From positions 1-38,786 of the forward strand of contig JANQLI010000148.1 of NCBI GenBank assembly GCA_028280675.1: a stretch of DNA of 38,786 bases, written 5' to 3'. Below, in pieces: positions 13,438-33,242 of the stretch. Made by a program: the position numbers and the translations under genes. Below the pieces are notes generated by a model. The model was not told the DNA's origin, did not search any database, and saw only the letters and a program-made list of their open reading frames with translations. The stretch comes from Alphaproteobacteria bacterium. Its GTDB lineage: Bacteria; Pseudomonadota; Alphaproteobacteria; SMXP01. How positions within the stretch are numbered: the first letter of the stretch is position 1; every line of letters begins with the position of its first letter.

Positions 13438-13498
13438 TTTCTGGGACATATGTCGGGGCTGGGGCAAACTTTGATTCATTTGTTTGTCGCTAATTATC

Positions 13499-15105: not shown

Positions 15106-15147
15106 AAACGCGATACCAGTCATTGTTGCGGTGTGCTGAGAGAGACG

Positions 15148-15471: not shown

Positions 15472-15514
15472 CTGATCTCCACCTATGTGGCATAGGAAAA
15501 CTAGGACAGATCTT

Positions 15515-16864: not shown

Positions 16865-17385
16865 TGCCCCCGCTAAGTGTTGTTAACACCCACACCTATT
16901 ACGAAATTCAATGCTATCTTCATCATGAGGCGCGGCTATTTGATAATGAAGAACAGCGTGAATGGTTAGATGAGCTTGTCGATCCAGAAATTCGTTATCA
17001 AGTATTGGTCACACAGGAGAGAAGCCGGGATGGACGAGGAAGTGGGAGCGATACTGTCTATGTCTATGATGACGGAAAAGACGAACTCGACTTTCGTGTA
17101 AAGCAATTTGAAACCGGTATGCAGTGGATGACCAATCCTGTGCCAAAACTGCGCCATCTTATTACGAATATTGAGGGATTCCAGTGTGAGAGCGATAATG
17201 AATTCCGCGTGTATTCAAACGGAATGATTTATCGAAGCCGGAAGGTTTACGAGGAAAATATATTTGTCTTTAGTCGTGATGATATTTTACGCCGCGGAGA
17301 TGATAATAAATTGCGACTCTTACGGCGTGAGGTTCTCTTAGACCAACGCTTAGTGCGCAGTAAGAATATGCTGTTCTTTATATAA
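16864..17385 (+). CDS. Ring-hydroxylating dioxygenase beta subunit
   Basis: YLHHEARLFD..EWL, P..RHLITN, RDDILRR..LLRREVLLD. Starts in a TGATG overlap with the alpha stop, with AGGAG upstream. Confidence 0.9.
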   Translation: MPPLSVVNTHTYYEIQCYLHHEARLFDNEEQREWLDELVDPEIRYQVLVTQERSRDGRGSGSDTVYVYDDGKDELDFRVKQFETGMQWMTNPVPKLRHLITNIEGFQCESDNEFRVYSNGMIYRSRKVYEENIFVFSRDDILRRGDDNKLRLLRREVLLDQRLVRSKNMLFFI

Positions 17386-17407
17386 TACGTCCTTGGGATT
17401 CTTATTG

Positions 17408-19000
17408 ATGACCACATATGATTATATCATTGTTGGGGCTGGGTCGGCAGGGTGTGTGCTAGCCAACAGGTTGTCAAAGAATCCTCGTCACTCTGTTCTT
17501 CTTATTGAAGCGGGCCCCTCTGACAAATCTCTTTTAGTTCGCATGCCCATGGGATTTGGAAAACTGCTTTCAGATACCAAGCATGTTCGGCATTTTACAA
17601 CTCAACCTGAGAGAGGAAATGGATTTCGATCCGAATCTTGGCCTAAAGGTAAGACGATAGGTGGATCAAGCTCGGTGAATGGGACCTATTATAATAGAGG
17701 CCAACCTCAGGATTATGATCACTGGCATGCTTTGGGTGCAACCGGATGGCATTGGGAAAATTTGGAACCGTATTTTCGGGAGATTGAGGACCATGTCTTA
17801 GGTGATGATGGCGTGAGGGGCAGTGATGGTGAGCTTCATGTTTCCTTGCATGCTGATCCCAGTTCACTTGCGAAGGCGACAATATCCGCAGCAAAGGGCT
17901 GTGGATTAGATCAGAAAGACGATTTGAACCGTGCCAATCCTGAAGGTATTGGCTATACAGCATGTAATATCAAGAATGGGGAGCGAGTGAGTGCCGCTAG
18001 TGCCTTTCTTGATCCCATAAATTCACGTCCTAATTTGACCGTCTGGAAAAATACCTTGGTCACAAAAATTGAATGCCAAGGAGGGCGGGCTGTAGGAGTT
18101 CATTTTCGCCAGGGTGGGCGTGATGCTTTCGTTAAATGTGATCGAGAAGTGATTCTTTCGGCAGGGGCAATTCAATCGCCACAATTGTTACAACTTTCAG
18201 GTATTGGACCTATCGATGTACTTTCACAGTTTGAGATACCAGTCGTAGCGAATCTTCCTGGTGTGGGGCAAAACCTTCGTGAGCATCGTATGCTATTTGT
18301 CCAGCATGCTTTGAAACAGCCACTCAGCTACAATCATGAGTTTAATGGATTAAGAGTTATTCCGCATGTGCTCCAGTATATCCTCAAGAAAAAAGGTTTA
18401 ATGGCGACGAGCTCACATGAAGTGTGTGGTTATCTAAAGTCTCATCCGGATACAGATCGCCCGGATATTCAAATTATTATGGCACCTTTCTCATTTGATC
18501 TTGAGCAAGGCGGTGCTGTAACGTTTGAGAAGTGCCATGGCATGCAGATTTCCGGTTATCACTTGCAGCCGACGAGTTGCGGCAGTGTGAATATTTGTTC
18601 GATTGATCCTGAGGTTCAACCTACGATTACCTCGAACTATTTAGATACGGAGAAAGACCGTGCCGTGAGTGTTGCTATTCTAAAACATATCCGAAATATT
18701 TATGCACAACCCGCATTGCAGAAGTATGTAGATGAAGAAACATCTCCTGGTATCGCAATAGAAGCGCCAGAAGAAGTGATTAATTATCACCGTTGTTATG
18801 GTCAATGCCTTTATCACGTAGCGGGGACATGCAAGATGGGAAAAGACGACATGTCTGTAGTTGATGAGAGGTTGAAAGTCTATGGTGTCGAAGGATTGCG
18901 TGTAGTTGACTGTTCTATCATGCCTACGCTTGTTTCGGGAACGACGAGTGGCCCGGTCATGGCTATTGCTAATCGTGCCGCAGCCTTAATCACCGGGTAA
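17408..19000 (+). CDS. GMC-family FAD oxidoreductase (choline/aryl-alcohol dehydrogenase-like)
   Basis: YDYIIVGAGSAG, GKTIGGSSSVNG, EVILSAGAIQSPQLLQLSGIG, YHVAGTCKMG, GLRVVDCSIMP. ATG at 17408 is preferred to TTG at 17393. Confidence 0.9.
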   Translation: MTTYDYIIVGAGSAGCVLANRLSKNPRHSVLLIEAGPSDKSLLVRMPMGFGKLLSDTKHVRHFTTQPERGNGFRSESWPKGKTIGGSSSVNGTYYNRGQPQDYDHWHALGATGWHWENLEPYFREIEDHVLGDDGVRGSDGELHVSLHADPSSLAKATISAAKGCGLDQKDDLNRANPEGIGYTACNIKNGERVSAASAFLDPINSRPNLTVWKNTLVTKIECQGGRAVGVHFRQGGRDAFVKCDREVILSAGAIQSPQLLQLSGIGPIDVLSQFEIPVVANLPGVGQNLREHRMLFVQHALKQPLSYNHEFNGLRVIPHVLQYILKKKGLMATSSHEVCGYLKSHPDTDRPDIQIIMAPFSFDLEQGGAVTFEKCHGMQISGYHLQPTSCGSVNICSIDPEVQPTITSNYLDTEKDRAVSVAILKHIRNIYAQPALQKYVDEETSPGIAIEAPEEVINYHRCYGQCLYHVAGTCKMGKDDMSVVDERLKVYGVEGLRVVDCSIMPTLVSGTTSGPVMAIANRAAALITG

Positions 19001-19039
19001 GAGTTACATCACATATTGTCAATATATGTTCTTCAGTCA

Positions 19040-20053
19040 TCACTCAGCAGCTGCAGGGCTTTTTAAAGAAGAGTATTTTTTATGTAGGGCAGCTGCGCGA
19101 CGCCCGGATTCCTGCGCGCCTTCAAGGTAAGCATCTGGCAGAATATGGTAAGGCGGGCGTGTTGGTCCTGCATTCATCCAGCCTGCGGCATTCATGCGCG
19201 CTTTCTCTAGAGCAATGTTATAGATTGAAAACTCTTTGAAGCTGCCGTTCGGGAAAAGAGGTGCTAATGCATGCCCAATCTCTCCGGCCATGTTGTTCGC
19301 TTCAGCCCAATCATTGGATTCTTTGGCGGCTTTGATAACATCACGGAATCGCGTTACTGCATTTGGGCCGCACACGGCGCTATTTGTCCAGAACGCAGTG
19401 CAAAACTCAGGGTGCATCCGTGCCGCGCCATAGTAAGCAGCATCAATGGGTAAAAAACGAATTTGTTGGTGAGACGCATTGATGTCTTGTAATAGTCGAT
19501 CCATGCTTGAGTACTTACTCGTGACGACCTGTGGAATAGATGCCACTTGCGCCCAGAAATTTGTTGGGAAATCGAACTTGAAGGCTTCTTTATTATCGTA
19601 AACGCAAATTCCCATATCGGGGCAGGCTTCAGCGATATCTTTAAAATATTGTACTGCAGTTGCGACACTCGGTGCACACCACATTGGTACGCCAAGCATT
19701 GTGCCATCCGCGCCTAAGTCTGAAGCTATACGTGTTTGGCGAACTGTTTCTCGGGTATTTAATGCTGTGGTCCCGACGAAGACTGGAACACGCCCTGCAG
19801 TGACTTCGACAAGGGTTGCCATAAATTTGTACTTTTCATCCCATGTCAATGTTGCGCATTCGCCAAGCGTACCGAGTGCCAGAATACCATTCACGCCGCC
19901 CTTAATAAGGCCTTCGATGGCGCGTTCTGCTTCATCTAGATCGAGGGTGTCTTCGGACCGCCAATCATCGCTGCCCGGTTTTGCTGGCGTTGGCATGATG
20001 GCCCATGCACCTACGATTTCATCGACAGTTATGAGGGATTTTGCCTTGGCCAT
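19040..20053 (-). CDS. nahE: trans-o-hydroxybenzylidenepyruvate hydratase-aldolase
   Basis: GAWAIMPTPAK, LGTLGECATLTWDEK, GADGTMLGVPMW, EAFKFDFP..FWAQV..IPQVVTSKY, FSIYNIALEKARM. Confidence 0.92.
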   Translation of the reverse strand: MAKAKSLITVDEIVGAWAIMPTPAKPGSDDWRSEDTLDLDEAERAIEGLIKGGVNGILALGTLGECATLTWDEKYKFMATLVEVTAGRVPVFVGTTALNTRETVRQTRIASDLGADGTMLGVPMWCAPSVATAVQYFKDIAEACPDMGICVYDNKEAFKFDFPTNFWAQVASIPQVVTSKYSSMDRLLQDINASHQQIRFLPIDAAYYGAARMHPEFCTAFWTNSAVCGPNAVTRFRDVIKAAKESNDWAEANNMAGEIGHALAPLFPNGSFKEFSIYNIALEKARMNAAGWMNAGPTRPPYHILPDAYLEGAQESGRRAAALHKKYSSLKSPAAAE

Positions 20054-20120
20054 AGTCAGTTCCTAGTTTCGGGGCAGGTGAGAATCTGTCTCGTGCAGAC
20101 CCCTATATTTCTATTTCAGG

Positions 20121-20153
20121 TAATATACTAGCAGATCAGATATGCAATTTCAA
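20121..20153 (-). promoter_or_regulatory. nahE promoter candidate with operator-like copy 6 (TAATATACTAGCAGATCA, 20121-20138)
   Basis: Minus strand reads TTGAAA(20153-20148), 17 bp, TAGTAT(20130-20125), preceded by TGn. Confidence 0.58.
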
Positions 20154-20664
20154 TAACCCTCTATCTGTTAATCTCTATCATGAGGGGTTCTTGGGTTATT
20201 TGAGACTTGTGACGGCGATTCATAGCTTTAGGCGTGCTTTCTATAGATATTGAATCTTTCTGAAAGTTGACCGCTTCTCTCCAGATCAGGTGTGCGTAAT
20301 GTGAAGTTAATACACAAAGAGTCATAGTGGCTGATCAAACTTATAAGCCTCTTTATGAAGGCGAAGAGCGCTAAAGCATAGAATCTATCAGGCATATACG
20401 CTGGTAGACTGTCCCTCAGTTACATTCTGAGTGGGATCAATATGTCTCTTCTTTGTATGCTGTAAGTCAATGTTTCATGTTTTCAGCTATGCCAGCCTAA
20501 GGACATCATAGGTCGCGGGTATGGCATTTATTACCCTCGATGAAGATCAGAATAATCTGCCCAGTAGAAGCCAAATGTGAGGGGGGTGTATTCTTTAGGA
20601 TGCGTTGACTCTCGGGCACTAGAACGAATCAGCGCCGAATTTTACGGGAAAATGCGTAAAAGGC

Positions 20665-20693
20665 TTTACTTATATGCTAGAATGTTACATAAT
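20665..20693 (+). promoter_or_regulatory. Promoter candidate of the flavin-module/meta-pathway operon with operator-like copy 7 (TTATATGCTAGAATGTTA, 20670-20687)
   Basis: TTTACT(20665-20670), 17 bp, CATAAT(20688-20693). The palindrome fills the spacer. Confidence 0.62.
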
Positions 20694-20816
20694 CAGTCTC
20701 GAACTTCTTCACTGAGTGTATTTCGCTCACTTAGGTGGGGTTCACAGATGGTCTGTTATTAAGAGGGCAAAGTGTCAGCCAGACCGTGACTGGTTTAAAA
20801 ATGAAATGGATGAGCA

Positions 20817-21986
20817 ATGAACGATATACCTACGCCAGTCAGTCTTATTAATGCAGCGAGAGCAATGAAGCCTCAGTTGCGGGAACGCGCAGCTCAGGTG
20901 GAAGAAGCGCGCATTGTTGGTAGAGAAACAATTGCGGAGTTCCGAGAAGCGGGTTTCTTTAAAATTCTTCAGCCTAAATCTTATGGTGGTTATGAACTTC
21001 CGCCGGAAGTTTTATCTGATGTTATATTTGAAGTGGCTTCTGCTTGTGGGTCAAGCGGTTGGACACTTGCCGTCTTAGCGCTGCATCAATGGGAAGTTCA
21101 GCTTCTCCCGGAAGATGCTATTGCTGACATTTGGGGTGATGATCCAAATGTACTTTTATCGTCTGCTTATGCGCCATCCGGAAATGTGAAGCCAGTAGAT
21201 GGTGGATATGAGCTGAGTGGTGAGTGGCCGTATTCAAGCGGATGTGATCATGCCGACTGGGCGATTGTTGGTGGGGTGCGTCCACCACGGTCGGATGATG
21301 AGGTTCCTGCGCTTTGTGGTTTCTTCGTTCCAAGGTCAGAATATGAGATTATCGATGACTGGAACGTCATGGGGTTGGCTGGTACCGGGAGTAAAAGAAT
21401 TAAGATGGATGGTGTTTTTGTTCCAGAACGTCACCAGCATGCGATATTTGGTTCTGCACCACCACCTCCTGAAGATGCAAATACGATTTATAAAATTCCG
21501 TTTGCTCTCGTTTTTGTAGAAATGTTGTCTGCTGCCGTGCATGGCATGGCCATGGGTATGTTGGACCAATTTATAGAACGCAATAAAGCGCGTCTCGGTG
21601 CGTTGGATCAGTCAAAGTATTCTGAGAATTCAGACATTCACCGATACATTGCAGAAACGGAATTTGTGATCCGTTCATCACGGATGCTGAGTCATGAAAA
21701 TCAACGAACGGCATTTAACTTAGCTGAAGCGGGGCAAGAACAGGCGCTTATAGACAAAGTTCGGCACTTATGGGAAGCCGCTAAGTCCGTGCACAATTGT
21801 TCTGAAACCTGTTCAAAACTCTATTCCGTAAGTGGCGCGCATACCCTTTTTGAAGGTGATTCACTGCAGCGACTCTTCCGTGATTTGCAAAGCGGAACAA
21901 TGCATATGGCCTTTAATTACAACGCATATGCGCGCAACTACGGTGGCATGCATATGGGGCATCCGAATTCAGGGAGTTTTGTATAG
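20817..21986 (+). CDS. Two-component flavin monooxygenase, oxygenase subunit (acyl-CoA dehydrogenase fold; HsaA/C2-HPAH-like)
   Basis: AGFFKILQPKSYGGYE, ACGSSGW, LSGEWPYSSGCDHADW, DDWNVMGLAGTGS, LQRLFRDL..GTMH. Confidence 0.88.
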   Translation: MNDIPTPVSLINAARAMKPQLRERAAQVEEARIVGRETIAEFREAGFFKILQPKSYGGYELPPEVLSDVIFEVASACGSSGWTLAVLALHQWEVQLLPEDAIADIWGDDPNVLLSSAYAPSGNVKPVDGGYELSGEWPYSSGCDHADWAIVGGVRPPRSDDEVPALCGFFVPRSEYEIIDDWNVMGLAGTGSKRIKMDGVFVPERHQHAIFGSAPPPPEDANTIYKIPFALVFVEMLSAAVHGMAMGMLDQFIERNKARLGALDQSKYSENSDIHRYIAETEFVIRSSRMLSHENQRTAFNLAEAGQEQALIDKVRHLWEAAKSVHNCSETCSKLYSVSGAHTLFEGDSLQRLFRDLQSGTMHMAFNYNAYARNYGGMHMGHPNSGSFV

Positions 21987-22136
21987 GGTGCATCAGCACA
22001 GCATGTGCGACTGAAAATAATGGGTCTAACCATATCTGCTCAATGCGATATGTGAGCCAAGATTACTGACGGAATGGCAGCCTCGTGTTGTCTTGCGTAG
22101 TGGCGTGATCGTGTGCGCCGAAGAGGAGGATAGATA

Positions 22137-23369
22137 ATGAAAGTACTTGCATTCCAGCAGGCGCCGTATCGTCATATGCCCGCTGATTTCGCGGAGAAAT
22201 ACAATTCAGTTGTGAATACTCCTTATTTTGAGTTGGTTGATAATCAGCTCATGCATGAGGACCACGTACATTTTATTGATGAGATGTTACATGCAGCGCG
22301 TTGTGGTTTCGATGGAATCGGTCTTACCGAGCATGGTCAATCATCATATGATGTCTTGCCTAATCCCAATTTGCAGCTTGCAGCATTAGCTTATGCAACA
22401 CAATCAGAAGGCCTTGATACTGCGTTAGCGTGTTTGGGTCGTTCGTTGGGTAAAACAAAGGAGCCGCTACGAGTGGCTGAAGAGTATGCGGTTTTGGATC
22501 AAATCAGTGGTGGACGTTTGATCGCAGGTTATCCAATTTCTCTAAGCTTTGACTCAAATATCAACCAAGGTATTCCCCCCATACAGACCCGTGATCGTTT
22601 CGCGGAAAATATTATGTTGATTGATAAGGCTCACAAGGAGAAAGAACCATTTGCGTGGAATGGGAAATACAACAAACACCCACATGTGAATCTCTGGCCG
22701 CGCCCTGTGCAGCCGTCGCTTCCTGTGTGGTCTCCTGCTGTTGGAAATCCGCATACACTTGGTGGAATTCTTGATCGTGATCAGGTGTTTTTATATTTCA
22801 GTTGGTTCGGGCCTAAATTGACGGGTCGCATCTTTGATCGTTATTGGGAGATGGCCGAAGAACGTGGCCGTGACACGAATCCCTATCGACTTGCGTTCCT
22901 GCAATGTGTTGCTGTTGGAGAAACGGATGAAGAAGCGCATAGAGAGTACGGTCCGCACGTGAAAGCGGCATTTAATACTGGTCTTGGCTGTATACCCCAA
23001 TCCAATCTCGGCGTTCCTGGTTATATGGACATTAACGGCGTCGAAGCAGTGACGCGAGATCCGGGTGACTTTGGTATTTTTCCTAAAATGCGTACGGCAG
23101 CATATGAAGAAATCGTCGATGCGCAGGCGTGTATTGTTGGTGGTGTAGATACGGTAGCTGAACAGTTAATCGAGCTCATTAAATCACACCGGATTGGCAA
23201 TTTGTTGCTCATGACACAGCACGGGTCCATGCCAACAGAGCTTACCAAGAAAAACATCAGTCTTGTTGCAGAAAAAGTGATGCCCAAGCTGCGTCAAGCA
23301 TGGTCAGAAGCTGGTTTTGACGCTCAAGGTTGGGAACACAATTGGTGGCCAACCGGACTTACCAACTAA
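22137..23369 (+). CDS. Luciferase-like monooxygenase (LLM class)
   Basis: GFDGIGLTEH, PLRVAEEYAVLDQISGGRLIAG, LWPRPVQP, AEKVMPKLR. GAGGAGG RBS. Confidence 0.88.
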   Translation: MKVLAFQQAPYRHMPADFAEKYNSVVNTPYFELVDNQLMHEDHVHFIDEMLHAARCGFDGIGLTEHGQSSYDVLPNPNLQLAALAYATQSEGLDTALACLGRSLGKTKEPLRVAEEYAVLDQISGGRLIAGYPISLSFDSNINQGIPPIQTRDRFAENIMLIDKAHKEKEPFAWNGKYNKHPHVNLWPRPVQPSLPVWSPAVGNPHTLGGILDRDQVFLYFSWFGPKLTGRIFDRYWEMAEERGRDTNPYRLAFLQCVAVGETDEEAHREYGPHVKAAFNTGLGCIPQSNLGVPGYMDINGVEAVTRDPGDFGIFPKMRTAAYEEIVDAQACIVGGVDTVAEQLIELIKSHRIGNLLLMTQHGSMPTELTKKNISLVAEKVMPKLRQAWSEAGFDAQGWEHNWWPTGLTN

Positions 23370-23408
23370 CGCATCGCTTATGCAGATCAATATTCGGAGT
23401 TAGGCAAA

Positions 23409-24230
23409 ATGAGCAACAACACGAACATCAAAGGTCCCGAGAGGGAAGAAGTCATAGGCGTTTGGAATGACGAGATCAGCCTGCGCGTCAATATTGCCGG
23501 GGATGGTCCAGCGTTACTGTATTTCCATCCTGCCGGAGGCCTCTATTGGGACGAATTTCTTGATGCACTCGCAGAAAGCTACACGGTTTATGCGCCCGAA
23601 TTACCTGGAACAACGCCGGGTGATCCTTATGCCATACATAAGGTCAAGGATTATACTGACCTTATACTTATGTACGAAGAGCTAATTCAGAAACTCAACT
23701 TAAAGGGTTCTGTTGCTATTGGACAGTCTATGGGTGGTATGATCGCCTTTGATCTTGCATCCTTTTATCCTGATATCTTTAGCCACCTTATTGGACTGGC
23801 GCCGTGTGGCTTATGGCGAGATGATGCGCCAGTTGCGATCGCAGATCTTTATGTGGCAGCTCCTGAAACGGTTCCGAGTTTTCTTTTTGATGATCCTTCG
23901 CTGCCTGCAGCGCAGGCGATGCTGTCATTGCCAGAAGACCCCGCAAACATACCTAAGCACGTGGCTCAAGCGGTATGGAATCTGGGGTGTGCTGGAAAAT
24001 TTATGTGGCCCTTCCCGGATCATGGCCTAGGTGGCAGGCTGCATCGTATTGCGATACCGACACTGGTTCTTTGGGGACGCAATGATAATTTAGTGCCTTC
24101 GATTTATGCCGAAGATTTCGGAGCAAATATCTCAGGCAGTGAAGTTCATCTGTACGAAAACTGCGGGCATATTTTGCAAATCGAAAAATTAGACGACGCA
24201 TTGTCAGATGTGAAGCGATTCATAGCTTAG
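23409..24230 (+). CDS. Alpha/beta hydrolase
   Basis: Nucleophile elbow GQSMGG, PTLVLWGRNDNLVP (Asp), CGH (His), HPAGG oxyanion region. Confidence 0.88.
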   Translation: MSNNTNIKGPEREEVIGVWNDEISLRVNIAGDGPALLYFHPAGGLYWDEFLDALAESYTVYAPELPGTTPGDPYAIHKVKDYTDLILMYEELIQKLNLKGSVAIGQSMGGMIAFDLASFYPDIFSHLIGLAPCGLWRDDAPVAIADLYVAAPETVPSFLFDDPSLPAAQAMLSLPEDPANIPKHVAQAVWNLGCAGKFMWPFPDHGLGGRLHRIAIPTLVLWGRNDNLVPSIYAEDFGANISGSEVHLYENCGHILQIEKLDDALSDVKRFIA

Positions 24231-24297
24231 ATCAGCTGCTGCTGATTATGGAAATTAAGGCCGTGTAATGAGTGACGCACTCCTCAAAGGGACGAAT

Positions 24298-25281
24298 ATG
24301 CATAAGCCGGTATTTGATTCAAATGAATTCAGGCGCTCGCTTGGAACATTTGCAACTGGTGTGACTATCATTACTGTGCGTAGTCCTGATGGAGAACCTA
24401 TTGGCGTAACGGCGAATAGCTTTAGTTCCGTATCCCTTGATCCCCCTCTTGTTCTTTGGAGTTTAGCCAAAAATGCGAAAAGTCTTCCTGCATTTCAAGC
24501 AGCGGAGTACTTTGCAATTCACATTCTTTCGGCAGAACAAGAAGGCTTATCGAATTTATTCGCCTCGCAGGGGGCAGATAAGTTCGGCAACTTGAACACG
24601 GAGCAGGGTATAGGCGATACACCGTTGCTTGATGGATGCTGCACACGGATGCAATGTAAAGTGGCGCATCAATACGAGGGCGGTGATCATATCATATTTG
24701 TTGGAGAGGTCGTTGATCTCGTTAGCAATGATTTAACGCCACTTGTCTTTCAAGCGGGAAAATATTCTTTAGCAGCTCGTAAAACAGATGATACACCATT
24801 GATAAGTAGCTCATCTTCCGGGTTCGATGAGGATTTTTTTGGCTATTTGTTGTGGCGTGCATACTTCCAATTCCAATCTGAAGTTAACAAGCAAGCGCCA
24901 TTCAGAGGCTTCACCAGTCTTGAGTTTTTGATCCTTGTCACGCTCGCACATAATAATTGGCGAGCTGTCGATACACTGTGCGATATGATAGTGCATGATG
25001 GTGATCATGACTTGGTGGGCCAAGCATTGGAATCCTTAGTTGAAAAGGGCCTTCTTCAGGAGAAGGCCGACAAGAATGGATTTAAACTATGCGGTTTGAG
25101 TGAAACCGGAAACGAAAAAGCACTCGAACTACTCACTATCGCCAAATCAACGGAATCCACATTTTTGGAAAGGCTTGGGCAGAAGGAAAGTGCTGCCCTC
25201 AAGAATTTACTTAAAGGTTTTATCGTTGAGACGGATACGGGGATACCTCACCCTTGGGAGCGCACTGAAGGTGAAGCCTAA
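24298..25281 (+). CDS. Flavin reductase with a C-terminal MarR-like domain (C1-HPAH-like)
   Basis: FRRSLGTFATGVTIIT..GVTANSFSSVSLDPPLVLW..GGDHIIFVGEV, then about 150 aa with a winged-helix pattern (LESLVEKGLL..LSETG). Start at 24298 or 24268. Confidence 0.82.
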   Translation: MHKPVFDSNEFRRSLGTFATGVTIITVRSPDGEPIGVTANSFSSVSLDPPLVLWSLAKNAKSLPAFQAAEYFAIHILSAEQEGLSNLFASQGADKFGNLNTEQGIGDTPLLDGCCTRMQCKVAHQYEGGDHIIFVGEVVDLVSNDLTPLVFQAGKYSLAARKTDDTPLISSSSSGFDEDFFGYLLWRAYFQFQSEVNKQAPFRGFTSLEFLILVTLAHNNWRAVDTLCDMIVHDGDHDLVGQALESLVEKGLLQEKADKNGFKLCGLSETGNEKALELLTIAKSTESTFLERLGQKESAALKNLLKGFIVETDTGIPHPWERTEGEA

Positions 25282-25376
25282 GAAGTTTTCAAATATGTGC
25301 ACGCCATACGCAGTTTTCATGGATGCCCATTCACTTTTGAGCTTTTAGCTAAAGAGAAAGAGATTCATTTTCGATT

Positions 25377-25955
25377 ATGGAGGTATTGGTCTTTTTTAAT
25401 TTTCGCAGCCCTTATTGCTATTTAGCGACGCAAACGCTCTTTGATGAGATAGGCAAGCGTGGTGCAAAATTGATATGGAAGCCGCTCGCGGGATGGGATG
25501 GACGATCTCCTAAAGATCGTCCACGGATAAAAGACAAAGTGAGAATCGCACGTCAGGATGTTCAAAGAATTGCAAGAAAAATGGACATTCCTTTTTGCCC
25601 TCCACCGCCTGATACGGATCCGACATTAGCTGCTCTTGGTTCGTTATATGCAGAAAAAAGCGGTCAACTTGCAGCATATGTGAAGGCTGTTATGCAAGCT
25701 GAATGGGCAGAAGGCAAAGATATTGGAGATGAATACGTGCTGATGGAGAGCGTCAAGAAGTCCGATCTTAATGGCGAAGAATTTCTTATAAGTTTGAAAA
25801 ATCGCGATTTAAAGAACCAACTTTCAAAAAACTGGGAGGAAGCGCAGGAGCTGGGCGTGATTGGTGTTCCATCTTTTGTTGTCGAGGATCAGATTTTTTG
25901 GGGACATGATCGCCTCTCCTACTTGCTTGATTATATAGAGGAGAGAGCCGCATAG
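25377..25955 (+). CDS. Second, divergent NahD-like isomerase (kappa-GST/DsbA-like)
   Basis: FFNFRSPYCYL, GVIGVPSF..FWGHDRL. Confidence 0.8.
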   Translation: MEVLVFFNFRSPYCYLATQTLFDEIGKRGAKLIWKPLAGWDGRSPKDRPRIKDKVRIARQDVQRIARKMDIPFCPPPPDTDPTLAALGSLYAEKSGQLAAYVKAVMQAEWAEGKDIGDEYVLMESVKKSDLNGEEFLISLKNRDLKNQLSKNWEEAQELGVIGVPSFVVEDQIFWGHDRLSYLLDYIEERAA

Positions 25956-26266
25956 CGAAGACGGAAACAGATCAGTCTTGGGCATACACCCTTGAGTTTG
26001 AAGACACTGGAATAAGCTTAATGTGTCGTGCGTCGAAATCTGTTCTTGCAGAGCTTGAGAGACAACATTGTCAAACAGTGTCTATTGGTTGCCGTGGGGG
26101 TGGGTGTGGTGTGTGCCGTGTTGAAGTATTGATGGGGAAATATGCGGTTGGGACGATGAGTCGAGCGCAAGTGTCCTTAGAAGAAGAGAGATGTGGCATC
26201 GTATTAGCTTGTCAGCTTTATCCCGAAAGTGATTTGAAGCTTCGGGTGCTTAACCGAAAAAATTAA
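25952..26266 (+). CDS. xylT: XylT-type plant-like [2Fe-2S] ferredoxin (catechol dioxygenase reactivator), probable ATA start
   Basis: GCRGGGCGVCRV..MSRAQV..LACQ; immediately upstream of xylE. The frame is open from 25931 and the first ATG (26021) lies inside the domain. Confidence 0.82.
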   Translation: MAKTETDQSWAYTLEFEDTGISLMCRASKSVLAELERQHCQTVSIGCRGGGCGVCRVEVLMGKYAVGTMSRAQVSLEEERCGIVLACQLYPESDLKLRVLNRKN

Positions 26267-26313
26267 AATTGAGTAGTTATGGAATTTAATCAGGTGAGAG
26301 AGGAAATCGGAAA

Positions 26314-27237
26314 ATGGCAATGACAGGTGTACTGCGTCCAGGTTTCTGCCAATTGCGGGTCTTGGATATGGAAAAATCAATGGTTCACTATCGAGATCGG
26401 ATCGGTCTTGATGAAGTGAGTCAGGAAAAAGATGGTCGTGTGTATTTGAAAGCGCGCGATGAATTTGACCGCCATAGCATTATTTTGCGATCTGCCGATG
26501 AACCGGGTATGGATTGCATGGGTTTTAAAGTGTTAGATGACGAAAGCCTTACCCAGCTTGAAAAGGATCTCACCGCTTTTGGCGTGGATGTCGAGCATAT
26601 TGAGGCAGGTGAGCAGCCCGGTATCGGTCGGCGTATTCGTTTCCAAGCGCCTATGGGGCATATCTTTGATTTTTATGCGGAGATGGAAAAATCGGATAAA
26701 GGCCCAATGGTACAGGACCCGCATGTTTGGGATGAGCAACCCCGCGGTATGCGACCAATCCGTTTTGATCATTGCTTATTGTATGGTGATGAACTGGATG
26801 AAACAGCCGAGATTTTTCAAAAAGTCTTAGGCTTTCAAGTTTCTGAGGTCATTCGCGTTGAAGGGGACGTGATCAATGCATACTTCTTAACATGCAGCAC
26901 GAAGGCGCATGACATTGCTTTGATCCGCTTTCCTGAAAAAGGGAAGTTCCATCATTGCTCCTTTTTATTGGAAGACTGGAATGCCATTGGCAATGCGGCA
27001 GATATAATGACTCGTTACGATATCTCTGTTGATATTGGACCAACACGTCATGGTATTACGCGCGGTAAAACAATCTATTTCTTTGATCCATCGGGAAATC
27101 GCAATGAAGTTTTCTCAGGTGGCTACAACTTCTACCCTGACAATCCTCGCCGTGAATGGTGTGAAGAAGAAGTAGGACGTGCGATTTTCTATTACGAAAA
27201 GCAACTTAATGATCGCTTCATGGGAGTTGTGACCTAA
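26314..27237 (+). CDS. xylE: Catechol 2,3-dioxygenase
   Basis: 307 aa; GVLRPG, RFDHCLLYG, FHHCSF, DIGPTRHGITRGKTIYFFDPSGNRNEVF. Confidence 0.95.
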   Translation: MAMTGVLRPGFCQLRVLDMEKSMVHYRDRIGLDEVSQEKDGRVYLKARDEFDRHSIILRSADEPGMDCMGFKVLDDESLTQLEKDLTAFGVDVEHIEAGEQPGIGRRIRFQAPMGHIFDFYAEMEKSDKGPMVQDPHVWDEQPRGMRPIRFDHCLLYGDELDETAEIFQKVLGFQVSEVIRVEGDVINAYFLTCSTKAHDIALIRFPEKGKFHHCSFLLEDWNAIGNAADIMTRYDISVDIGPTRHGITRGKTIYFFDPSGNRNEVFSGGYNFYPDNPRREWCEEEVGRAIFYYEKQLNDRFMGVVT

Positions 27238-27331
27238 ACAGATATCACTCTGACTATTGATCATTAAGGATAGAAGGAAAATGTGGGGCAGGTATGTGAT
27301 TAAATCCTGATCATCACAAAGTTAGATACAC

Positions 27332-28798
27332 ATGACATCAAGAGAAATATTACATTTTATCGATGGGGCTTATACGGCTGGCTCATCTGGGCGGATGTAT
27401 GAGAATATCAATCCTGTGGATGGGAGTGTGATCTCACATATCTGTGAGGGGGGCCGTGACGATGTTGATCAAGCTGTGAGTGCCGCGCGTCGTGCACTTG
27501 CAGGCCCCTGGCGCGATATGACAGTTCAGCAGCGTTCAGATATTCTTTACCGGGTTGCCGACGGTATCACAGCACGATTTGATGAATTCCTTGAGGCCGA
27601 ATGTCTCGATACGGGTAAGCCTCATTCCTTGGCAAGGTCAATCGATATCCCTCGCGGTGCCGCAAACTTTAAGGTTTTTGCTGATCTTGTGAAAAATGTA
27701 CCTGCAGAATCCTTTGTAATGGATACACCTGATCAACAAGGTGCTGTGAACTATTCGATCCGTACACCCAAAGGGGTGATTGGCGTTATCTCACCATGGA
27801 ATCTGCCGCTTCTACTCATGACATGGAAGGTGGGTCCAGCCTTGGCCTGTGGAAATACGGTTGTTGTAAAGCCTTCCGAGGTAACGCCAACTACGACGGC
27901 ACTGCTTGGTGAGGTGATGAATGAAGCAGGCGTTCCACCCGGTGTGTACAATGTTGTGCATGGGTTTGGAGCGAATTCTGCGGGGGCCTTTTTGACAGAA
28001 CATCCAGATGTTGATGCCATCACATTCACAGGAGAGACATCAACGGGCACAGCGATTATGAAGGCTGCGTCTGAAGGGGTGCGTGATGTATCCTTTGAGC
28101 TGGGTGGGAAGAACCCTGCAATTGTTTTTGCCGATTGTGATCTCGATAAAGCCATTGAAGGAACCATGCGATCTGCTTTTGCAAATTGCGGTCAGGTCTG
28201 TCTCGGTACCGAGCGTGTTTATGTGGAGCGGCCAATCTTTGATGAATTCGTAAAGCGTCTCAAAGAGGGTGCTGAAGGCCTTGTGATCGGTCCACCTGAT
28301 ATGGAAGGGGCTGCGCTTGGTCCACTGGTGAGCCAGGAGCATCAGGATAAAGTTCTCAAATATTATGATCTTGCTGCGTCGTTAGGTGCCCAGATTGTTA
28401 CGGGTGGCGGCGCTCCGAGCATGAACGATGCACTGCAATCGGGATTCTGGGTGGAGCCGACTATTTGGACGGGATTACCCGATGATAGCCCCATCATGAA
28501 AGAAGAAATTTTTGGCCCATGCTGTCATATCACACCATTTGATTCAGAAGATGAAGTTATCGCTTTGGCAAATGATACGGATTATGGGTTGTGCTCGTCC
28601 GTGTGGACGGAAAATCTCTCAAAAGCGAACCGTGTTGCAGCGCAAATTGATTGTGGCATCACATGGGTGAACTCGTGGTTTTTGCGCGATCTTCGGACAC
28701 CTTTTGGTGGCGCAAAACAATCCGGTATCGGTCGCGAAGGTGGTGTTCATAGCTTGGAATTTTACACAGAGCTACGCAATATCTGTGTGAAGCTGTAG
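27332..28798 (+). CDS. xylG: 2-hydroxymuconic semialdehyde dehydrogenase
   Basis: DIPRGAANFKVFAD, PWNLPLLLMTWK, FTGET, FANCGQVCLGTER, WVNSWFLRDLRTPFGG. Confidence 0.95.
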   Translation: MTSREILHFIDGAYTAGSSGRMYENINPVDGSVISHICEGGRDDVDQAVSAARRALAGPWRDMTVQQRSDILYRVADGITARFDEFLEAECLDTGKPHSLARSIDIPRGAANFKVFADLVKNVPAESFVMDTPDQQGAVNYSIRTPKGVIGVISPWNLPLLLMTWKVGPALACGNTVVVKPSEVTPTTTALLGEVMNEAGVPPGVYNVVHGFGANSAGAFLTEHPDVDAITFTGETSTGTAIMKAASEGVRDVSFELGGKNPAIVFADCDLDKAIEGTMRSAFANCGQVCLGTERVYVERPIFDEFVKRLKEGAEGLVIGPPDMEGAALGPLVSQEHQDKVLKYYDLAASLGAQIVTGGGAPSMNDALQSGFWVEPTIWTGLPDDSPIMKEEIFGPCCHITPFDSEDEVIALANDTDYGLCSSVWTENLSKANRVAAQIDCGITWVNSWFLRDLRTPFGGAKQSGIGREGGVHSLEFYTELRNICVKL

Positions 28799-28804
28799 GG
28801 GATT

Positions 28805-29608
28805 GTGATGAGTACGATTAGTCACGATGATATTGAACGCGCCGCTTCTCAATTGAGGCAGGCGCACGAAAGTGGCGTTCCATGCGCGCCGCTCAATCAA
28901 TTCATTCCAGCAACGGATATTGAGGCCGGTTACGCCATCCAAAATATGAATACAGATTATTGGATTGCAGAAGGACGCAAACTTGTTGGCCGTAAAACAG
29001 GTTTAACCTCTAAAGCCGTACAGAACCAACTGGGAGTTAATCAACCCGATTTTGGAATGCTCTTTTCAGATATGGCGTATGCCGATGGTGAGGATATATC
29101 TCTATCACGGATGCTACAGCCCAAAGTCGAAGGTGAAATAGCATTTATTCTCGGCCAGGATCTCGATAGTGATCATCTGACATTGGCGGATGTGATAAGC
29201 GCTATTGATTATGCAGTTTGTGCCATTGAGATCGTCGATTCGCGTATTGCAGATTGGCAAATCAAGATTATGGATACCGTTGCAGATAATGCGTCATCGG
29301 GTCTTTACGTTTTGGGAAGTGAGCCGCGAAAACTCGGTGAATTTGATCCCCAACTTTGTGGTATGGTGATCGAACATCGAGGTGAGCCAATTTCGACTGG
29401 TGCTGGTGCCGCATGTTTGGGCAATCCGCTACATGCCACACTCTGGCTTGCAAAAATCATGGTTGATGTGAAACGTCCTTTGAAAAAAGGCGATACGGTC
29501 TTATCCGGTGCTCTTGGCCCAATGGTCAGTGTCACAGGCGAGGGCGTGTATGAGCTTCGCATTGATGGTGTGGGGTCTGTTCGCGCTTCTTTTGTTGATG
29601 GGAAATAG
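28805..29608 (+). CDS. xylJ: 2-oxopent-4-enoate hydratase
   Basis: GRKTGLTSKAVQNQLGVNQPDFG, QPKVEGEIAF, EIVDSRI, DTVADNASSG, LSGALGPMV. Confidence 0.9.
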   Translation: MMSTISHDDIERAASQLRQAHESGVPCAPLNQFIPATDIEAGYAIQNMNTDYWIAEGRKLVGRKTGLTSKAVQNQLGVNQPDFGMLFSDMAYADGEDISLSRMLQPKVEGEIAFILGQDLDSDHLTLADVISAIDYAVCAIEIVDSRIADWQIKIMDTVADNASSGLYVLGSEPRKLGEFDPQLCGMVIEHRGEPISTGAGAACLGNPLHATLWLAKIMVDVKRPLKKGDTVLSGALGPMVSVTGEGVYELRIDGVGSVRASFVDGK

Positions 29609-29618
29609 GTAATCGATA

Positions 29619-30557: not shown

Positions 30558-30571
30558 GTGGGATCAGTAAG

Positions 30572-32367: not shown

Positions 32368-32415
32368 TTATCTACTTCATAGATAGCTGTTTAGTATTTC
32401 ACAGTAGGTGGTGAA

Positions 32416-33123: not shown

Positions 33124-33242
33124 CTTGAAAGAATTGGTTTGAGTTATGTACTATAAAACTGCATTAGTTGTCAGAGGAATATGGTAAAGTGCTGCAAAGA
33201 GAATCATGCACTTCTATAACCTTACAATTCATTTATTCCCGC

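Follow-up and report, generated by a model that had tools for sequence, protein, structure and literature searches.

What does a set of flavin-dependent oxygenase genes contribute at the head of a catechol meta-cleavage operon? This question was raised by a stretch of 38,786 nucleotides (the window) from a marine aromatic-compound degrader. Gene calling placed five genes at 20817-25955, all on the forward strand and running co-directionally into xylTEGJQKI (Table 1). The preliminary description had spoken of a four-gene module here; the stretch itself holds five genes, while a four-gene cassette of oxygenase, luciferase-like monooxygenase (LLM), hydrolase and reductase is conserved. The gene classes it had named, including the serine hydrolase and the NahD-like gene, were borne out by Pfam, NCBIfam and PDB comparisons, and the co-directional run into the xyl genes by the gene calls.

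Table 1. Features of the flavin module and its surroundings (positions in the window).
Feature	Position	Strand	Basis	Details
Operator cores ATRCTAGNAT, all intergenic	2976, 5503, 9962, 13519, 20674, 33978, 34221 (span 2976..34230)		Motif scan	Units marked, in order: maiA, gentisate dioxygenase operon, nahD1 operon, aldehyde dehydrogenase-RHO-GMC operon, module + xyl operon, ribB-like-gntR, ligAB-MFS
NahE (trans-o-hydroxybenzylidenepyruvate hydratase-aldolase)	19040..20053	-	PDB 9frt (2.6e-122), 6dao (3.2e-121), PhdJ 6dan (2.2e-86)	Divergent from module
Promoter/operator, sigma-70-like	20664..20693	+		-35 TTTACT 20665-20670, 17-nt spacer, -10 CATAAT 20688-20693
Operator core ATGCTAGAAT	20674-20683			Inside spacer of module promoter
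HsaA/C2-like oxygenase, ACAD-fold, flavin-dependent, 389 aa	20817..21986	+	Pfam, NCBIfam, PDB	Predicted phenol ortho-hydroxylation
LLM, luciferase/DKCMO branch, 410 aa	22137..23369	+	Pfam, PDB profile, Foldseek	Predicted Baeyer-Villiger/Dakin-type
Serine alpha/beta hydrolase, 273 aa	23409..24230	+	Pfam, triad, synteny	Predicted aryl-ester/lactone hydrolase
C1-type NADH:flavin reductase, 337 aa	24268..25281	+		Flavin_Reduct N-terminal and C1-like regulatory C-terminal domain
Divergent NahD paralog, DSBA-like, 192 aa	25377..25955	+	Pfam DSBA, PDB matches	
xylT, xylE, xylG, xylJ, xylQ, xylK, xylI	26021..32367	+	Pfam, NCBIfam	Dehydrogenase branch
Genes after module	26021-26266, 26314-27237, 27332-28798, 28805-29608, 29619-30557, 30572-31597, 31597-32367	+	Gene calls	
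GntR/FCD regulator (32416-33123), downstream of RibB-like gene (33243-33917)	32416..33917	-	Pfam GntR + FCD, DHBP_synthase	
Second GntR/FCD regulator	36814..37551	-	Pfam; tblastn	

The oxygenase carries Acyl-CoA_dh_2 and Acyl-CoA_dh_N domains (Pfam) and scored 307 bits on the NCBIfam model for HsaA (cut-off 450) and 224 bits on that for C2 (cut-off 650); its best PDB match was 2rfq, the oxygenase of 3-HSA hydroxylase (4.1e-70), and 2jbr was matched at 2.2e-47. The reductase showed a Flavin_Reduct domain at residues 26-166 (Pfam), reached 214 bits on NF045919 over residues 15-319 (cut-off 340) and aligned over its whole length to the C1 reductase 5zc2 (residues 11-319, 8.5e-48). It had been called a reductase-MarR fusion; Pfam detected no MarR domain in the C-terminus (best match HTH_27, E 0.19), and what stands of that claim is the full-length homology to C1, its sole basis. 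The C-terminal half was kept at 47-53% in five related loci (L002-L006). The fifth gene product matched DSBA (105.7 bits, Pfam), 3fz5 (2.2e-13) and the HCCA isomerase 2imd (2.9e-11) and shared 27% identity with the stronger NahD copy (10075-10668). The resemblance of the oxygenase to HsaA, which was both its best NCBIfam model and the source of its best PDB match, would suit a steroid A-ring module whose products act as HsaA, HsaB and HsaD equivalents on 3-HSA-like seco-steroids, and a related MAG bears the label Novosphingobium sp. Chol11; some related loci hold HsaD-like hydrolases, a KstD-like flavoprotein, an SDR or a P450. However, the HsaA score lies below its cut-off, the reductase is C1-type rather than HsaB-type (214 versus 129 bits, NCBIfam), NahE, NahD, RHO, gentisate and catechol genes make up the neighbourhood throughout, and no steroid gene was found in the window, all of which leaves this reading very improbable.

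The LLM is a divergent member of its class: it matched Bac_luciferase with 116 bits (Pfam), and its family profile recovered from the PDB 2i7g (6e-22), 7bip (8e-21), 4uwm (1.4e-9) and LuxA (1.5e-9). A Foldseek search with the AlphaFold model (pLDDT 81.6) again placed 7bip and 2i7g on top, followed by 5aec/4uwm at 9e-16, so the closest characterized relatives are the type II BVMO 3,6-diketocamphane monooxygenase (3,6-DKCMO), the luciferases and RslO1, and not DszA. Burkholderia sp. DBT1, which degrades dibenzothiophene, is the source of a further deposited homolog, 62% identical and labelled only "putative monoxygenase". The Kodama pathway of this strain destroys the ring, and the strain is not known to use the 4S route. 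The preliminary description had offered a DszC/DszA-like attack on heteroaromatics as an alternative, taken here as sulfur-specific and directed at thiophenic compounds, to which the fold classes (ACAD-fold oxygenase, LLM and reductase) and the homolog from a dibenzothiophene-transforming strain would lend themselves. That alternative found no support: the oxygenase scored 29 bits on the DszC model (cut-off 850) and 60 on SfnB (cut-off 431), the LLM profile found no DszA/SsuD/LadA/NtaA-type chain in the PDB at E<=0.01, and SsuD, HcbA1 and CmoJ came no higher than 34th among the Foldseek matches. The route of DBT1, a third gene encoding a serine alpha/beta hydrolase instead of a desulfinase, and the carbon-catabolic context (NahE, NahD, XylE) argue in the same direction, and we regard a desulfurizing role as extremely improbable.

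By its relatives, the LLM is predicted to insert oxygen beside a carbonyl in a Baeyer-Villiger/Dakin-type reaction. The hydrolase (Abhydrolase_1, Pfam) has the triad S107/D226/H254 in the motifs GQS107MGG, D226 and GH254I and, as the constant partner of the LLM, is predicted to be an aryl-ester/lactone hydrolase. Of 80 LLM loci, drawn from Pseudomonadota, Actinomycetota and Acidobacteriota, 74 had the hydrolase gene immediately 3' of the LLM. Five more were cut <=318 nt past the LLM, leaving L073 as the one true absence; the pair is thus present in 74 of the 75 loci, spread across phyla, that are informative. The pairing still held in six of nine loci at 27-37% LLM identity. LLM and hydrolase thus form an old, conserved, near-obligate pair, and adjacency maintained from 27 to 82% identity speaks for enzymes that act one after the other. 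Baeyer-Villiger oxidation followed by ester or lactone hydrolysis and then hydroxylation, as proposed earlier, fits the proximity of the LLM to 3,6-DKCMO and luciferases, the serine nucleophile and this pairing. The homology of the LLM does not, however, single out this chemistry, since the closest solved structures are 2i7g, a top structural neighbour itself of unknown function, and RslO1, likewise a top neighbour and described as epoxide-forming in an excerpt of PMC11354265.

The LLM might accordingly hydroxylate, epoxidize or otherwise oxygenate its substrate, and the hydrolase might serve another step, such as C-C bond cleavage in a ring-fission product or thioester hydrolysis. The fold search with the hydrolase model placed esterases/lipases and C-C (MCP) hydrolases equally near, with CumD at rank 3 and CarC, HsaD and MhpC close behind, and the pair occurs inside meta-cleavage clusters of Pseudomonas, Burkholderia and Cupriavidus. 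On the other hand, the hydrolase reached only 44-50 bits across the BphD and HsaD models (BphD 49.8, cut-off 462), compared to 150-199 bits for the true MCP hydrolases of the same loci, and the GNS and GHW motifs, present in the true MCP hydrolases of L003 and L056 as GNSFGG and GHW, are missing from it. In Pseudomonas and Novosphingobium the loci moreover encode a distinct true MCP hydrolase next to the pair. Together with the adjacency described above, these features lead us to consider a role outside Baeyer-Villiger chemistry rather unlikely.

The oxygenase was directly 5' of the LLM in all nine loci with an ortholog of at least 50% identity (L002-L007, L022, L095, L096), the full order oxygenase-LLM-hydrolase-reductase was seen in L002-L006 and L096, and among the loci searched such orthologs occurred only beside an LLM. 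A sample of 200 further genomes from the G045 family yielded none at E<=1e-90. This invariable position ahead of the LLM-hydrolase pair indicates a genuine four-gene cassette, rare and horizontally mobile. The preliminary description did not recognize the arrangement from described PAH clusters, yet the LLM-hydrolase half has been seen before: a fosmid from a phenanthrene consortium, which shares 99% identity with Burkholderia sp. HB-1, carries it with no assigned function (PMC5591006, Table 1), and DBT1 has a homolog of the LLM. Elsewhere, small operons join the pair to catechol cleavage, which favours the Baeyer-Villiger reading: it was found in Rhodococcus as LLM-hydrolase-flavin reductase-catA next to a LysR gene, in Caballeronia as reductase-LLM-hydrolase beside ortho-cleavage genes, and in Pseudomonas as C23O-MCP hydrolase-LLM-hydrolase-xylJQK. 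In Solirubrobacterales its surroundings do not look aromatic and comprise a second LLM, EthD, Zn-ADH, hydantoinase A/B and a sugar ABC transporter. In Sphingobium AntQ-1 grown on anthraquinone, an LLM and an adjacent hydrolase showed the highest expression of any genes and were proposed to be a BVMO and a lactone hydrolase, according to an excerpt of PMC9836352.

These contexts bear on a substrate-specific version of the Baeyer-Villiger reading, a Dakin shortcut in which NahE would supply an o-hydroxyaryl aldehyde (salicylaldehyde, 1-hydroxy-2-naphthaldehyde or, when dibenzothiophene is degraded, 3-hydroxy-2-formylbenzothiophene), the LLM would convert it to an aryl formate, and the hydrolase would yield formate and a catechol-type diol, bypassing aldehyde dehydrogenase and salicylate hydroxylase. 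A bona fide NahE is encoded divergently from the module, and NahE homologs were present in the flanks of 14 of the 80 LLM loci. Rugosibacter/Rhodocyclaceae loci follow the order ferredoxin-LLM-hydrolase-reductase-NahE-NahD-RHO, with no aldehyde dehydrogenase homolog within the flanks of L013-L016, L018, L021 and L029. The HB-1-like fosmid has the same order (PMC5591006, Table 1), but its authors classed the RHO adjoining the pair as salicylate-type (PMC5591006), which means that salicylate would still be formed. The DBT1 homolog and the Rhodococcus arrangement with catA also favour the shortcut, as does the lack of a salicylate 1-monooxygenase over the TIGR03219 cut-off in six of six genomes, although the genomes, being MAGs, are incomplete and a Rieske-type salicylate hydroxylase would escape that search. 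Yet the HsaA-like oxygenase would be left without a role, an aromatic aldehyde dehydrogenase is present in the window under the same operator, and among the papers searched none described a bacterial flavin monooxygenase that takes salicylaldehyde to catechol by a Dakin reaction. We therefore rate the shortcut as unlikely.

Promoter and operator of the module are conserved. A 23-nt element, CTTTACTTATATKCTAGAATGYT, recurred exactly 5' of the oxygenase in six other loci (L002-L005, L022, L095), and even with up to 3 mismatches allowed the expected number of matches in the window is 0. The flanking intergenic DNA was otherwise unalignable. The earlier claim of one operator-bearing promoter is thus supported comparatively; the repeat finder alone did not reveal the operator. 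Matches in the window to the core of this element, ATRCTAGNAT, numbered 11 at 7 sites versus 0.59 expected (0 of 100 shuffles reached 11), and seven of the eight sites in the 2.88-Mb genome are on this contig, the eighth (C217:5072) lying inside an ORF. This concentration at seven intergenic sites of the island points to a GntR-type regulon. Two paralogs are candidates for binding the operator: one core (33978-33987) lies 61 nt upstream of the ribB-like-gntR pair, and the regulator at 36814..37551 is the paralog closest (50-56%, tblastn) to the GntR in eight cassette-holding loci.

The gap between module and xylT (25955-26021) contained neither an operator core nor a terminator-like site, and no such site lay in any intergenic gap of 20817-32367, in agreement with the earlier observation of no clear terminator within the run. 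Across the search, nine terminator-like sites were found versus 12.1 expected; the seven upstream of 32300 were all intragenic, and the others were at 32314-32345 and 32422-32438. The one operator-bearing promoter would serve the module and the xyl genes together, and the two are predicted to be co-transcribed. XylE (TIGR03211, 398.9 bits, cut-off 320.2) and XylG (TIGR03216, 859.9 bits, cut-off 693.25) exceeded their curated cut-offs, and the meta-cleavage set at 26021..32367 includes no xylF or xylH. Other routes to ring-cleavage substrates exist in the window (aromatic aldehyde dehydrogenase, RHO and gentisate genes as well as BenAB-like genes), so the meta operon does not need the module.

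This last point counts against the Baeyer-Villiger mechanism that we prefer, as do the Solirubrobacterales context, the nearness of the hydrolase fold to MCP hydrolases and the presence of a flavin reductase gene at only 19 of 82 loci. We nevertheless put the mechanism forward tentatively, with slightly less than even confidence. Behind the sigma-70-like promoter with its putative GntR-family repressor operator in the spacer, the reductase would use NADH to supply reduced flavin to both oxygenases, and its C-terminal domain may tie flavin reduction to an aromatic ligand, as in C1. That a single reductase serves the cassette, as proposed earlier, is supported, and we infer that both oxygenases share its flavin. 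On the LLM, a flavin peroxide would attack an aromatic aldehyde or ketone at its carbonyl carbon, and oxygen insertion would give an aryl ester or lactone, which the serine hydrolase would split to expose a phenolic hydroxyl. If a catechol has not been reached at this stage, the HsaA/C2-like oxygenase would hydroxylate ortho to this group, and the catechol would pass to XylE and the downstream enzymes. The overall task of the module is probably the conversion of aromatic aldehydes or ketones to catechols.

Gene calling placed 12 genes, all on the plus strand, between positions 20817 and 32367 of the window, which has a G+C content of 45% and is one contig of a 2.88-Mb metagenome-assembled genome (MAG) that is 84% complete. 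The preliminary description had read the stretch 20817-25955 as a four-gene module running co-directionally into the xyl genes. Gene calls, family searches and a terminator scan bore out the run and its lack of intergenic terminators, but the stretch contains five genes rather than four. The fifth encodes a product whose DSBA-like thioredoxin fold and similarity to solved HCCA isomerases would place it in the NahD class, and which is only 27% identical to the second NahD copy of the window. Among the genes that follow, XylE (TIGR03211, 398.9 bits; cut-off 320.2) and XylG (TIGR03216, 859.9 bits; cut-off 693.25) exceeded the cut-offs of their families, while XylJ, XylI, XylQ and XylK were named by their best family matches. 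With XylE and XylG followed by a hydratase, an acylating dehydrogenase, an aldolase and a decarboxylase, this part of the run is a catechol meta-cleavage operon of the xyl/dmp type. Neither an xylF hydrolase nor xylH was present in this operon, and 4-oxalocrotonate tautomerase (PF01361) was not found anywhere in the 84% complete genome. Terminator-like sites were absent from the intergenic gaps before 32314 (nine sites in total versus 12.1 expected from shuffled sequences), and Rfam gave no matches in the window. The longest gap of the run (150 nt, 21987-22136) separates the oxygenase from the luciferase-like monooxygenase (LLM) gene and contains no terminator-like site, promoter-like site or repeat; a gap of about 70-150 nt was also seen between these two genes in related loci. 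The divergent neighbor of the module is a bona fide NahE (PDB 9frt, 2.6e-122).

Features of the module, the meta-cleavage operon and the surrounding aromatic island, with positions in the window
Feature	Position	Strand	Matches and remarks
ACAD-fold oxygenase	20817-21986	+	HsaA model 307 bits, C2 model 224 bits; PDB 2rfq 4e-70, 2jbr 2e-47
LLM	22137-23369	+	single-sequence PDB matches all distant; best 2i7g, 3e-16
Alpha/beta hydrolase	23409-24230	+	
Flavin reductase, 337 aa	24268-25281	+	whole length aligns with two-domain C1 (5zc2 8.5e-48)
Divergent HCCA-isomerase-family (NahD-like) protein	25377-25955	+	PF01323 105.7 bits; PDB 3fz5 2.2e-13, 2imd 2.9e-11
xylT, xylE, xylG, xylJ, xylQ, xylK, xylI	26021-32367	+	after the NahD-like gene
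BenA/BenB-like RHO subunits	1-1940		124-aa C-terminal BenA fragment 194 bits, BenB 179 bits
Gentisate pathway genes	3046-5468		
Sulfatase	5607-7268	-	
TonB-dependent receptor	7561-9828	+	
GntR gene	32416-33123	-	
RibB-like gene (DHBP synthase)	33243-33917	-	Pfam 91.9 bits; NCBIfam ribB 71 bits (cut-off 177)
LigA-like ORF and LigB-type extradiol dioxygenase	34267-35400		
GntR/FCD gene	36814-37551		
Formyltetrahydrofolate-deformylase-like gene	37778-38641		Formyl_trans_N 130 bits

The oxygenase carries PF02771 and PF08028, matches PDB entries 2rfq, 3afe and 2jbr and has a separate flavin reductase gene 2.3 kb downstream in the same cluster, as is characteristic of group D (ACAD-fold) two-component flavin monooxygenases. 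It scored below the equivalog cut-offs for both HsaA (NF045629, 307.1 bits over residues 13-385 versus 450) and the C2 component of HPAH (NF045920, 224 bits versus 650). The reductase covered profile positions 4-307 of 309 of the C1 model NF045919, with 214 bits against a cut-off of 340, and its residues 11-319 aligned to residues 9-313 of 5zc2, so that both domains are covered. The reductase-MarR fusion proposed earlier has its support in this full-length homology to C1; a MarR domain was not recovered in Pfam (best HTH_27, E 0.19). Together, oxygenase and reductase likely constitute a two-component phenol hydroxylase. Like C1/C2 HPAH of Acinetobacter baumannii and HsaAB of Mycobacterium/Rhodococcus, they pair an ACAD-fold oxygenase with a Flavin_Reduct reductase, but unlike these systems the module proteins lie below all three equivalog cut-offs (HsaA, C2 and C1), are found in a setting of PAH/catechol catabolism instead of 4-HPA or steroid degradation, and are encoded by genes between which the LLM and hydrolase genes are inserted. 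Given this position of the LLM and hydrolase genes, one reductase therefore probably serves two oxygenases.

The cassette of oxygenase, LLM, hydrolase and reductase is real and rare. Orthologs of the oxygenase (at least 50% identity) were present in nine loci from other genomes and metagenomes (L002-L007 and L022 as well as the metagenome contigs L095 and L096), and the latter two were the only ones exceeding 40% identity among the 80 best of 241 oxygenase relatives. The oxygenase gene lies directly upstream of the LLM gene in all nine, and the complete order oxygenase-LLM-hydrolase-reductase is found in L002-L006 and L096, which agrees with the conservation that had been predicted for this arrangement. 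L007 has the order reductase-oxygenase-LLM-hydrolase, the contig of L095 is cut within the LLM gene, and L022 shows no reductase. No oxygenase ortholog at E<=1e-90 was detected in a sample of 200 additional genomes of the family to which genome G045 belongs, and none of six genomes of the window's own family contained an LLM match at E<=1e-30, the closest LLMs (80-87% identity) being from other lineages; the LLM of the cultured Emcibacter nanhaiensis is 85% identical. Such a scattered occurrence, with highly identical copies in distant hosts, points to horizontal transfer. The best match to the oxygenase in the plasmid collection was only about 36% identical.

Upstream of the oxygenase there is a single promoter-like site, TTTACT-17 nt-CATAAT (20665-20693). 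A 23-nt element at 20664-20686, CTTTACTTATATKCTAGAATGYT, is present in exact form in L002-L005, L022 and L095, and outside of it the regions upstream of the oxygenase could not be aligned across loci; zero chance matches to the element are expected in the window, even at three mismatches. Within the promoter spacer lies the operator core ATRCTAGNAT. The repeat finder reported no inverted repeats of at least 10 nt in 20040-20830, and the operator was seen only by comparing loci. Seven positions in the window, all intergenic, carry the core (2976, 5503, 9962, 13519, 20674, 33978 and 34221), giving 11 matches with palindromes counted on both strands, compared with 0.59 expected; none of 100 shuffles reached 11. 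These sites front maiA, the gentisate dioxygenase operon, nahD1, an aldehyde dehydrogenase-ferredoxin-RHO-GMC operon, the module, the ribB-like-gntR pair and ligA-like/ligB-MFS. In the whole 2.88-Mb genome there are eight core sites, seven of them on this contig and the eighth inside an ORF. Among 174 loci, the core was present in all nine cassette loci and in five others, and in L007 and L096 it adjoins a GntR gene. The window contains two GntR/FCD genes, and a homolog 50-56% identical to the copy at 36814-37551 is found in eight cassette loci. No core site precedes xylT, so that the meta genes have no separate operator and, in the simplest view, rely on the module promoter. The conserved element and the missing site at xylT support the single operator-bearing promoter suggested in the preliminary description, and the module and the xyl genes probably share this operator-controlled promoter. 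From the sequence we infer that a GntR-type regulator would bind the operator and that the module and the xyl genes would be co-transcribed. A search of sequencing runs recovered the locus in two DNA runs from a single study and in no RNA run.

Several other genes of the island are associated with the same operator. The gentisate genes, under the core sites at 2976 and 5503, encode a maleylpyruvate-isomerase-like GST (TIGR01262, 269.9 bits, above cut-off), an FAA-family hydrolase and a gentisate 1,2-dioxygenase-like cupin (275.6 bits, below the cut-off of 442). A sulfatase and a TonB-dependent receptor are located inside the aromatic island between operator-marked promoters, and a homolog of the receptor (45% identity) lies between the reductase and NahE in cassette locus L006. 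The RibB-like gene, a divergent family member, precedes a GntR gene of the same orientation, and an operator core is located 61 nt before the pair; the gene may serve to raise the flavin supply specifically for the flavin-dependent module, and no homolog was found in related loci. The gene for the LigB-type extradiol dioxygenase follows an ORF of 88 aa that matches LigA weakly (E 0.002, below cut-off), from which the enzyme is probably of the two-subunit LigAB type; the best NCBIfam matches of the LigB part were MhpB-like (137 bits, below cut-off). The BenA/BenB-like genes are followed by a Zn-dependent dehydrogenase and not by the usual short-chain BenD type. The formyltetrahydrofolate-deformylase-like gene at the island edge adjoins the second GntR gene, and any connection with formate or C1 metabolism would be speculation.

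The family profile of the LLM matched, in order, PDB entries 2i7g (function not assigned; 6e-22) and 7bip (RslO1; 8e-21), followed by Enhygromyxa luciferase, the PuwE oxygenase domain, 3,6-diketocamphane monooxygenase (4uwm, 1.4e-9) and LuxA (1.5e-9). No chain of the DszA, SsuD, LadA or NtaA type was matched at E<=0.01 in this search of the PDB. An AlphaFold model of the LLM (pLDDT 81.6, pTM 0.87) gave the same order with Foldseek, namely 7bip and 2i7g, then 5aec/4uwm (9e-16 to 4e-15) and then luciferases, with SsuD, RutA, HcbA1 and CmoJ at rank 34 or lower. Judged by sequence profile and predicted fold, the LLM sits on the luciferase/diketocamphane monooxygenase (DKCMO) side of the superfamily, on which characterized reactions open with a flavin peroxide attacking a carbonyl. 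[quoted passage not shown] The 3,6- and 2,5-DKCMO of the CAM plasmid and bacterial luciferase are the nearest functionally characterized structures (4uwm and LuxA by profile, 5aec at 9e-16 by fold) and likewise combine a TIM-barrel LLM with a separate flavin reductase. In contrast to these enzymes, the LLM, a predicted monooxygenase of 410 aa with extra segments, is only about 20% identical to them and is constantly partnered with a serine hydrolase. RslO1, however, is described as epoxide-forming (PMC11354265), and Baeyer-Villiger activity on progesterone is reported for a Caenibius LLM (PMC12239570). In the ESM Atlas, an LLM homologue (P0002) fell into generic "LLM class oxidoreductase" clusters only. 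A DszA/DszC desulfurization system was considered and rejected, as the DszC model (NF043015) scored 29 bits versus 850, no PDB chain of the DszA/SsuD branch was matched at E<=0.01, and the third gene encodes an alpha/beta hydrolase instead of DszB.

The hydrolase has the triad Ser107-Asp226-His254 in the motifs GQSMGG and GHI. An Asn-Ser nucleophile elbow and a His-Trp motif are hallmarks of C-C hydrolases, and a serine nucleophile rules out an epoxide-hydrolase or dehalogenase mechanism in this fold. True meta-cleavage product (MCP) hydrolases, encoded next to the LLM-hydrolase pair in loci of Novosphingobium (L003:11180) and Pseudomonas (L056:7091), display GNSFGG and GHW and reached 150-199 bits on the BphD/HsaD models; by cut-off and motifs, the hydrolase of the module does not belong to this class (BphD TIGR03343, 49.8 versus 462 bits; HsaD NF045632, 44.2 versus 400). 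Its fold search did not discriminate, with lipases and esterases (6i8w, ABHD6, Est1) scoring like MCP hydrolases (CumD, CarC, HsaD, MhpC).

The simplest model that uses every conserved feature is a sequence of Baeyer-Villiger or Dakin oxidation, ester cleavage and hydroxylation, which as a whole we propose tentatively, with a confidence slightly short of even. One C1-type reductase would supply reduced flavin, the LLM would insert oxygen into an aryl aldehyde or ketone in a Baeyer-Villiger or Dakin-type reaction, the serine hydrolase would cleave the resulting aryl ester or lactone, and the HsaA/C2-like oxygenase would add a second, ortho hydroxyl where needed, so that the product could enter the XylE pathway under common GntR-type control. 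As candidate substrates, besides the o-hydroxyaryl aldehydes discussed below, the preliminary description had suggested cyclic ketones or quinones of oxy-PAHs, for example 1-indanone, which could be converted via dihydrocoumarin and melilotate to 2,3-dihydroxyphenylpropionate. Such a route would employ all four genes and also the LigB-type dioxygenase and the HsaD-like hydrolase of the Novosphingobium loci.

The partnership of LLM and hydrolase is ancient and close. When one genome per species was scanned with the profile, 80 loci with LLM relatives of 47-82% identity were recovered, hosted by Sphingomonadaceae, Halieaceae, Porticoccaceae, Rugosibacter/Rhodocyclaceae, Pseudomonas, Burkholderia, Cupriavidus, Thauera, many Actinomycetota and a Terriglobales MAG, so that the pair spans Pseudomonadota, Actinomycetota and Acidobacteriota. 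A hydrolase homolog directly follows the LLM gene in 74 of them (gaps of -43 to 135 nt); in five of the other six the contig ends at most 318 nt after the LLM, leaving L073 alone as truly lacking the hydrolase. Even in distant relatives (27-37% LLM identity) the pair was adjacent in six of nine loci, and two plasmid matches at about 30% LLM identity overlap an annotated alpha/beta hydrolase. The best 120 90%-identity clusters of the LLM family are all at least 53% identical to the LLM, and 1.84 billion representatives included 136 matches at E<=1e-30 and 1024 at E<=1e-10. In the plasmid collection the best LLM matches were from Rhodococcus and Caballeronia (50-54% identity), and no Sphingobium record matched the window LLM at E<=1e-12.

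Among the closest relatives, the pair lies inside gene clusters of the PAH type. Its flanks include homologs of NahE in 14 of the 80 loci, and of NahD in 13, ring-cleavage dioxygenases in 15 (XylE-like in eight, LigB-type in six and CatA in three) and a flavin reductase in 19 of 82 loci, the latter total including two plasmid loci. Rugosibacter/Rhodocyclaceae have a LysR gene and the order ferredoxin-LLM-hydrolase-RHO reductase-NahE-NahD-RHO alpha/beta. Elsewhere the pair and catechol-cleavage genes make up minimal units: a Rhodococcus rhodochrous plasmid has LysR and LLM-hydrolase-flavin reductase-catA, Caballeronia has reductase-LLM-hydrolase beside ortho-cleavage genes, and Pseudomonas has TetR and flavin reductase genes together with C23O-like-MCP hydrolase-LLM-hydrolase-xylJQK-porin. 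The linkage to NahE and the oxygenase-less operons ending in catA or C23O would be explained if the pair were an aryl-aldehyde Dakin monooxygenase and an aryl-formate esterase converting NahE-released o-hydroxyaryl aldehydes (salicylaldehyde, 1-hydroxy-2-naphthaldehyde or 3-hydroxy-2-formylbenzothiophene, a supposed dead-end product of dibenzothiophene) to catechol-type diols and formate, a shortcut that we nevertheless regard as unlikely. It would bypass NahG, and salicylate 1-monooxygenase (TIGR03219) was above its cut-off in none of the six genomes examined; this absence lends weak support, because these are incomplete MAGs and salicylate hydroxylases of other types, such as the Rieske type, exist. 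Other routes encoded in the window, partly under the same operator, argue against the module being strictly required; they comprise an aromatic aldehyde dehydrogenase (9jw2, 3e-105; NahF 4jz6, 5e-94), an RHO, the gentisate pathway and the BenAB-like genes. In Solirubrobacterales and other Actinomycetota (L025-L046) the genes downstream of the pair encode another LLM, shorter at 285 aa, together with an EthD-domain protein and a Zn-ADH, and an enolase-superfamily gene, hydantoinase A/B, a GntR gene and a sugar-type ABC transporter are nearby; this context is conserved but different and cautions against tying the whole LLM family to one aromatic substrate. Counts from the census of neighboring gene families are lower bounds, since the GC3-filtered ORF caller drops some genes.

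The closest precedents for the pair are that of Burkholderia sp. HB-1, with a homologous LLM in Burkholderia sp. DBT1, and the LLM-hydrolase pair of Sphingobium sp. AntQ-1. Fosmid S1P3 from a phenanthrene consortium, 99% identical to HB-1, carries ferredoxin-LLM-hydrolase-reductase-NahE, as in the Rugosibacter/Rhodocyclaceae loci (PMC5591006, Table 1), and its authors noted the "luciferase family protein" without giving a function (PMC5591006). An RHO, a GMC oxidoreductase and a GntR-linked meta operon adjoin the pair there, a gene content very like that of the window, but the genes given include neither an HsaA-like oxygenase nor a C1-type reductase (PMC5591006). The operator core was not found in the Rugosibacter-type loci related to HB-1, which have a LysR gene instead. 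The LLM of DBT1, a dibenzothiophene degrader, (AAK96191.1, "putative monoxygenase alpha subunit") is 62% identical to that of the window and falls into one 90%-identity cluster with the HB-1 protein. In AntQ-1, according to the available sections of the report, sphantq_4473 (LLM) and sphantq_4474 (hydrolase) were proposed as a type II BVMO and a lactone hydrolase converting anthraquinone to catechol and phthalate (PMC9836352). As in the window, an LLM and an alpha/beta hydrolase are thus adjacent in a PAH-related degrader; these sections infer their function from transcript levels and metabolites instead of enzyme assays, and describe no HsaA-like oxygenase or C1-type reductase beside the pair (PMC9836352). 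Our searches of the published literature found no function assigned to the window's LLM subfamily and no description of a four-gene arrangement with one C1-type reductase for two oxygenase systems, of the cassette's conserved promoter-operator or of the near-obligate LLM-hydrolase couple as a family. The parts are of known kinds (group D two-component hydroxylases, LLM monooxygenases, serine hydrolases and GntR-controlled catabolic operons), none of them at an equivalog cut-off, and the whole is a real, conserved and uncharacterized catabolic module.

The conserved promoter-operator provides a compact sequence marker for the cassette in metagenomes, and, traveling with the cassette and combined with the seven-site regulon, offers a regulatory model for a whole marine aromatic-catabolic island. 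The four-gene version could illustrate how a single ligand-gated reductase supplies two distinct flavin oxygenases. If the Dakin shortcut were to apply, many PAH degraders would possess an oxygen-dependent bypass of NahF/NahG and a route completing the Kodama pathway. More generally, if the proposed chemistry is correct, the widespread LLM-hydrolase pair (at least 120 90%-identity clusters, none below 53% identity) would be a missing genetic basis for Baeyer-Villiger and Dakin steps. Metabolites have long suggested such steps in the degradation of PAHs, of oxy-PAHs (indanone, fluorenone, anthraquinone) and possibly of thiophenes.
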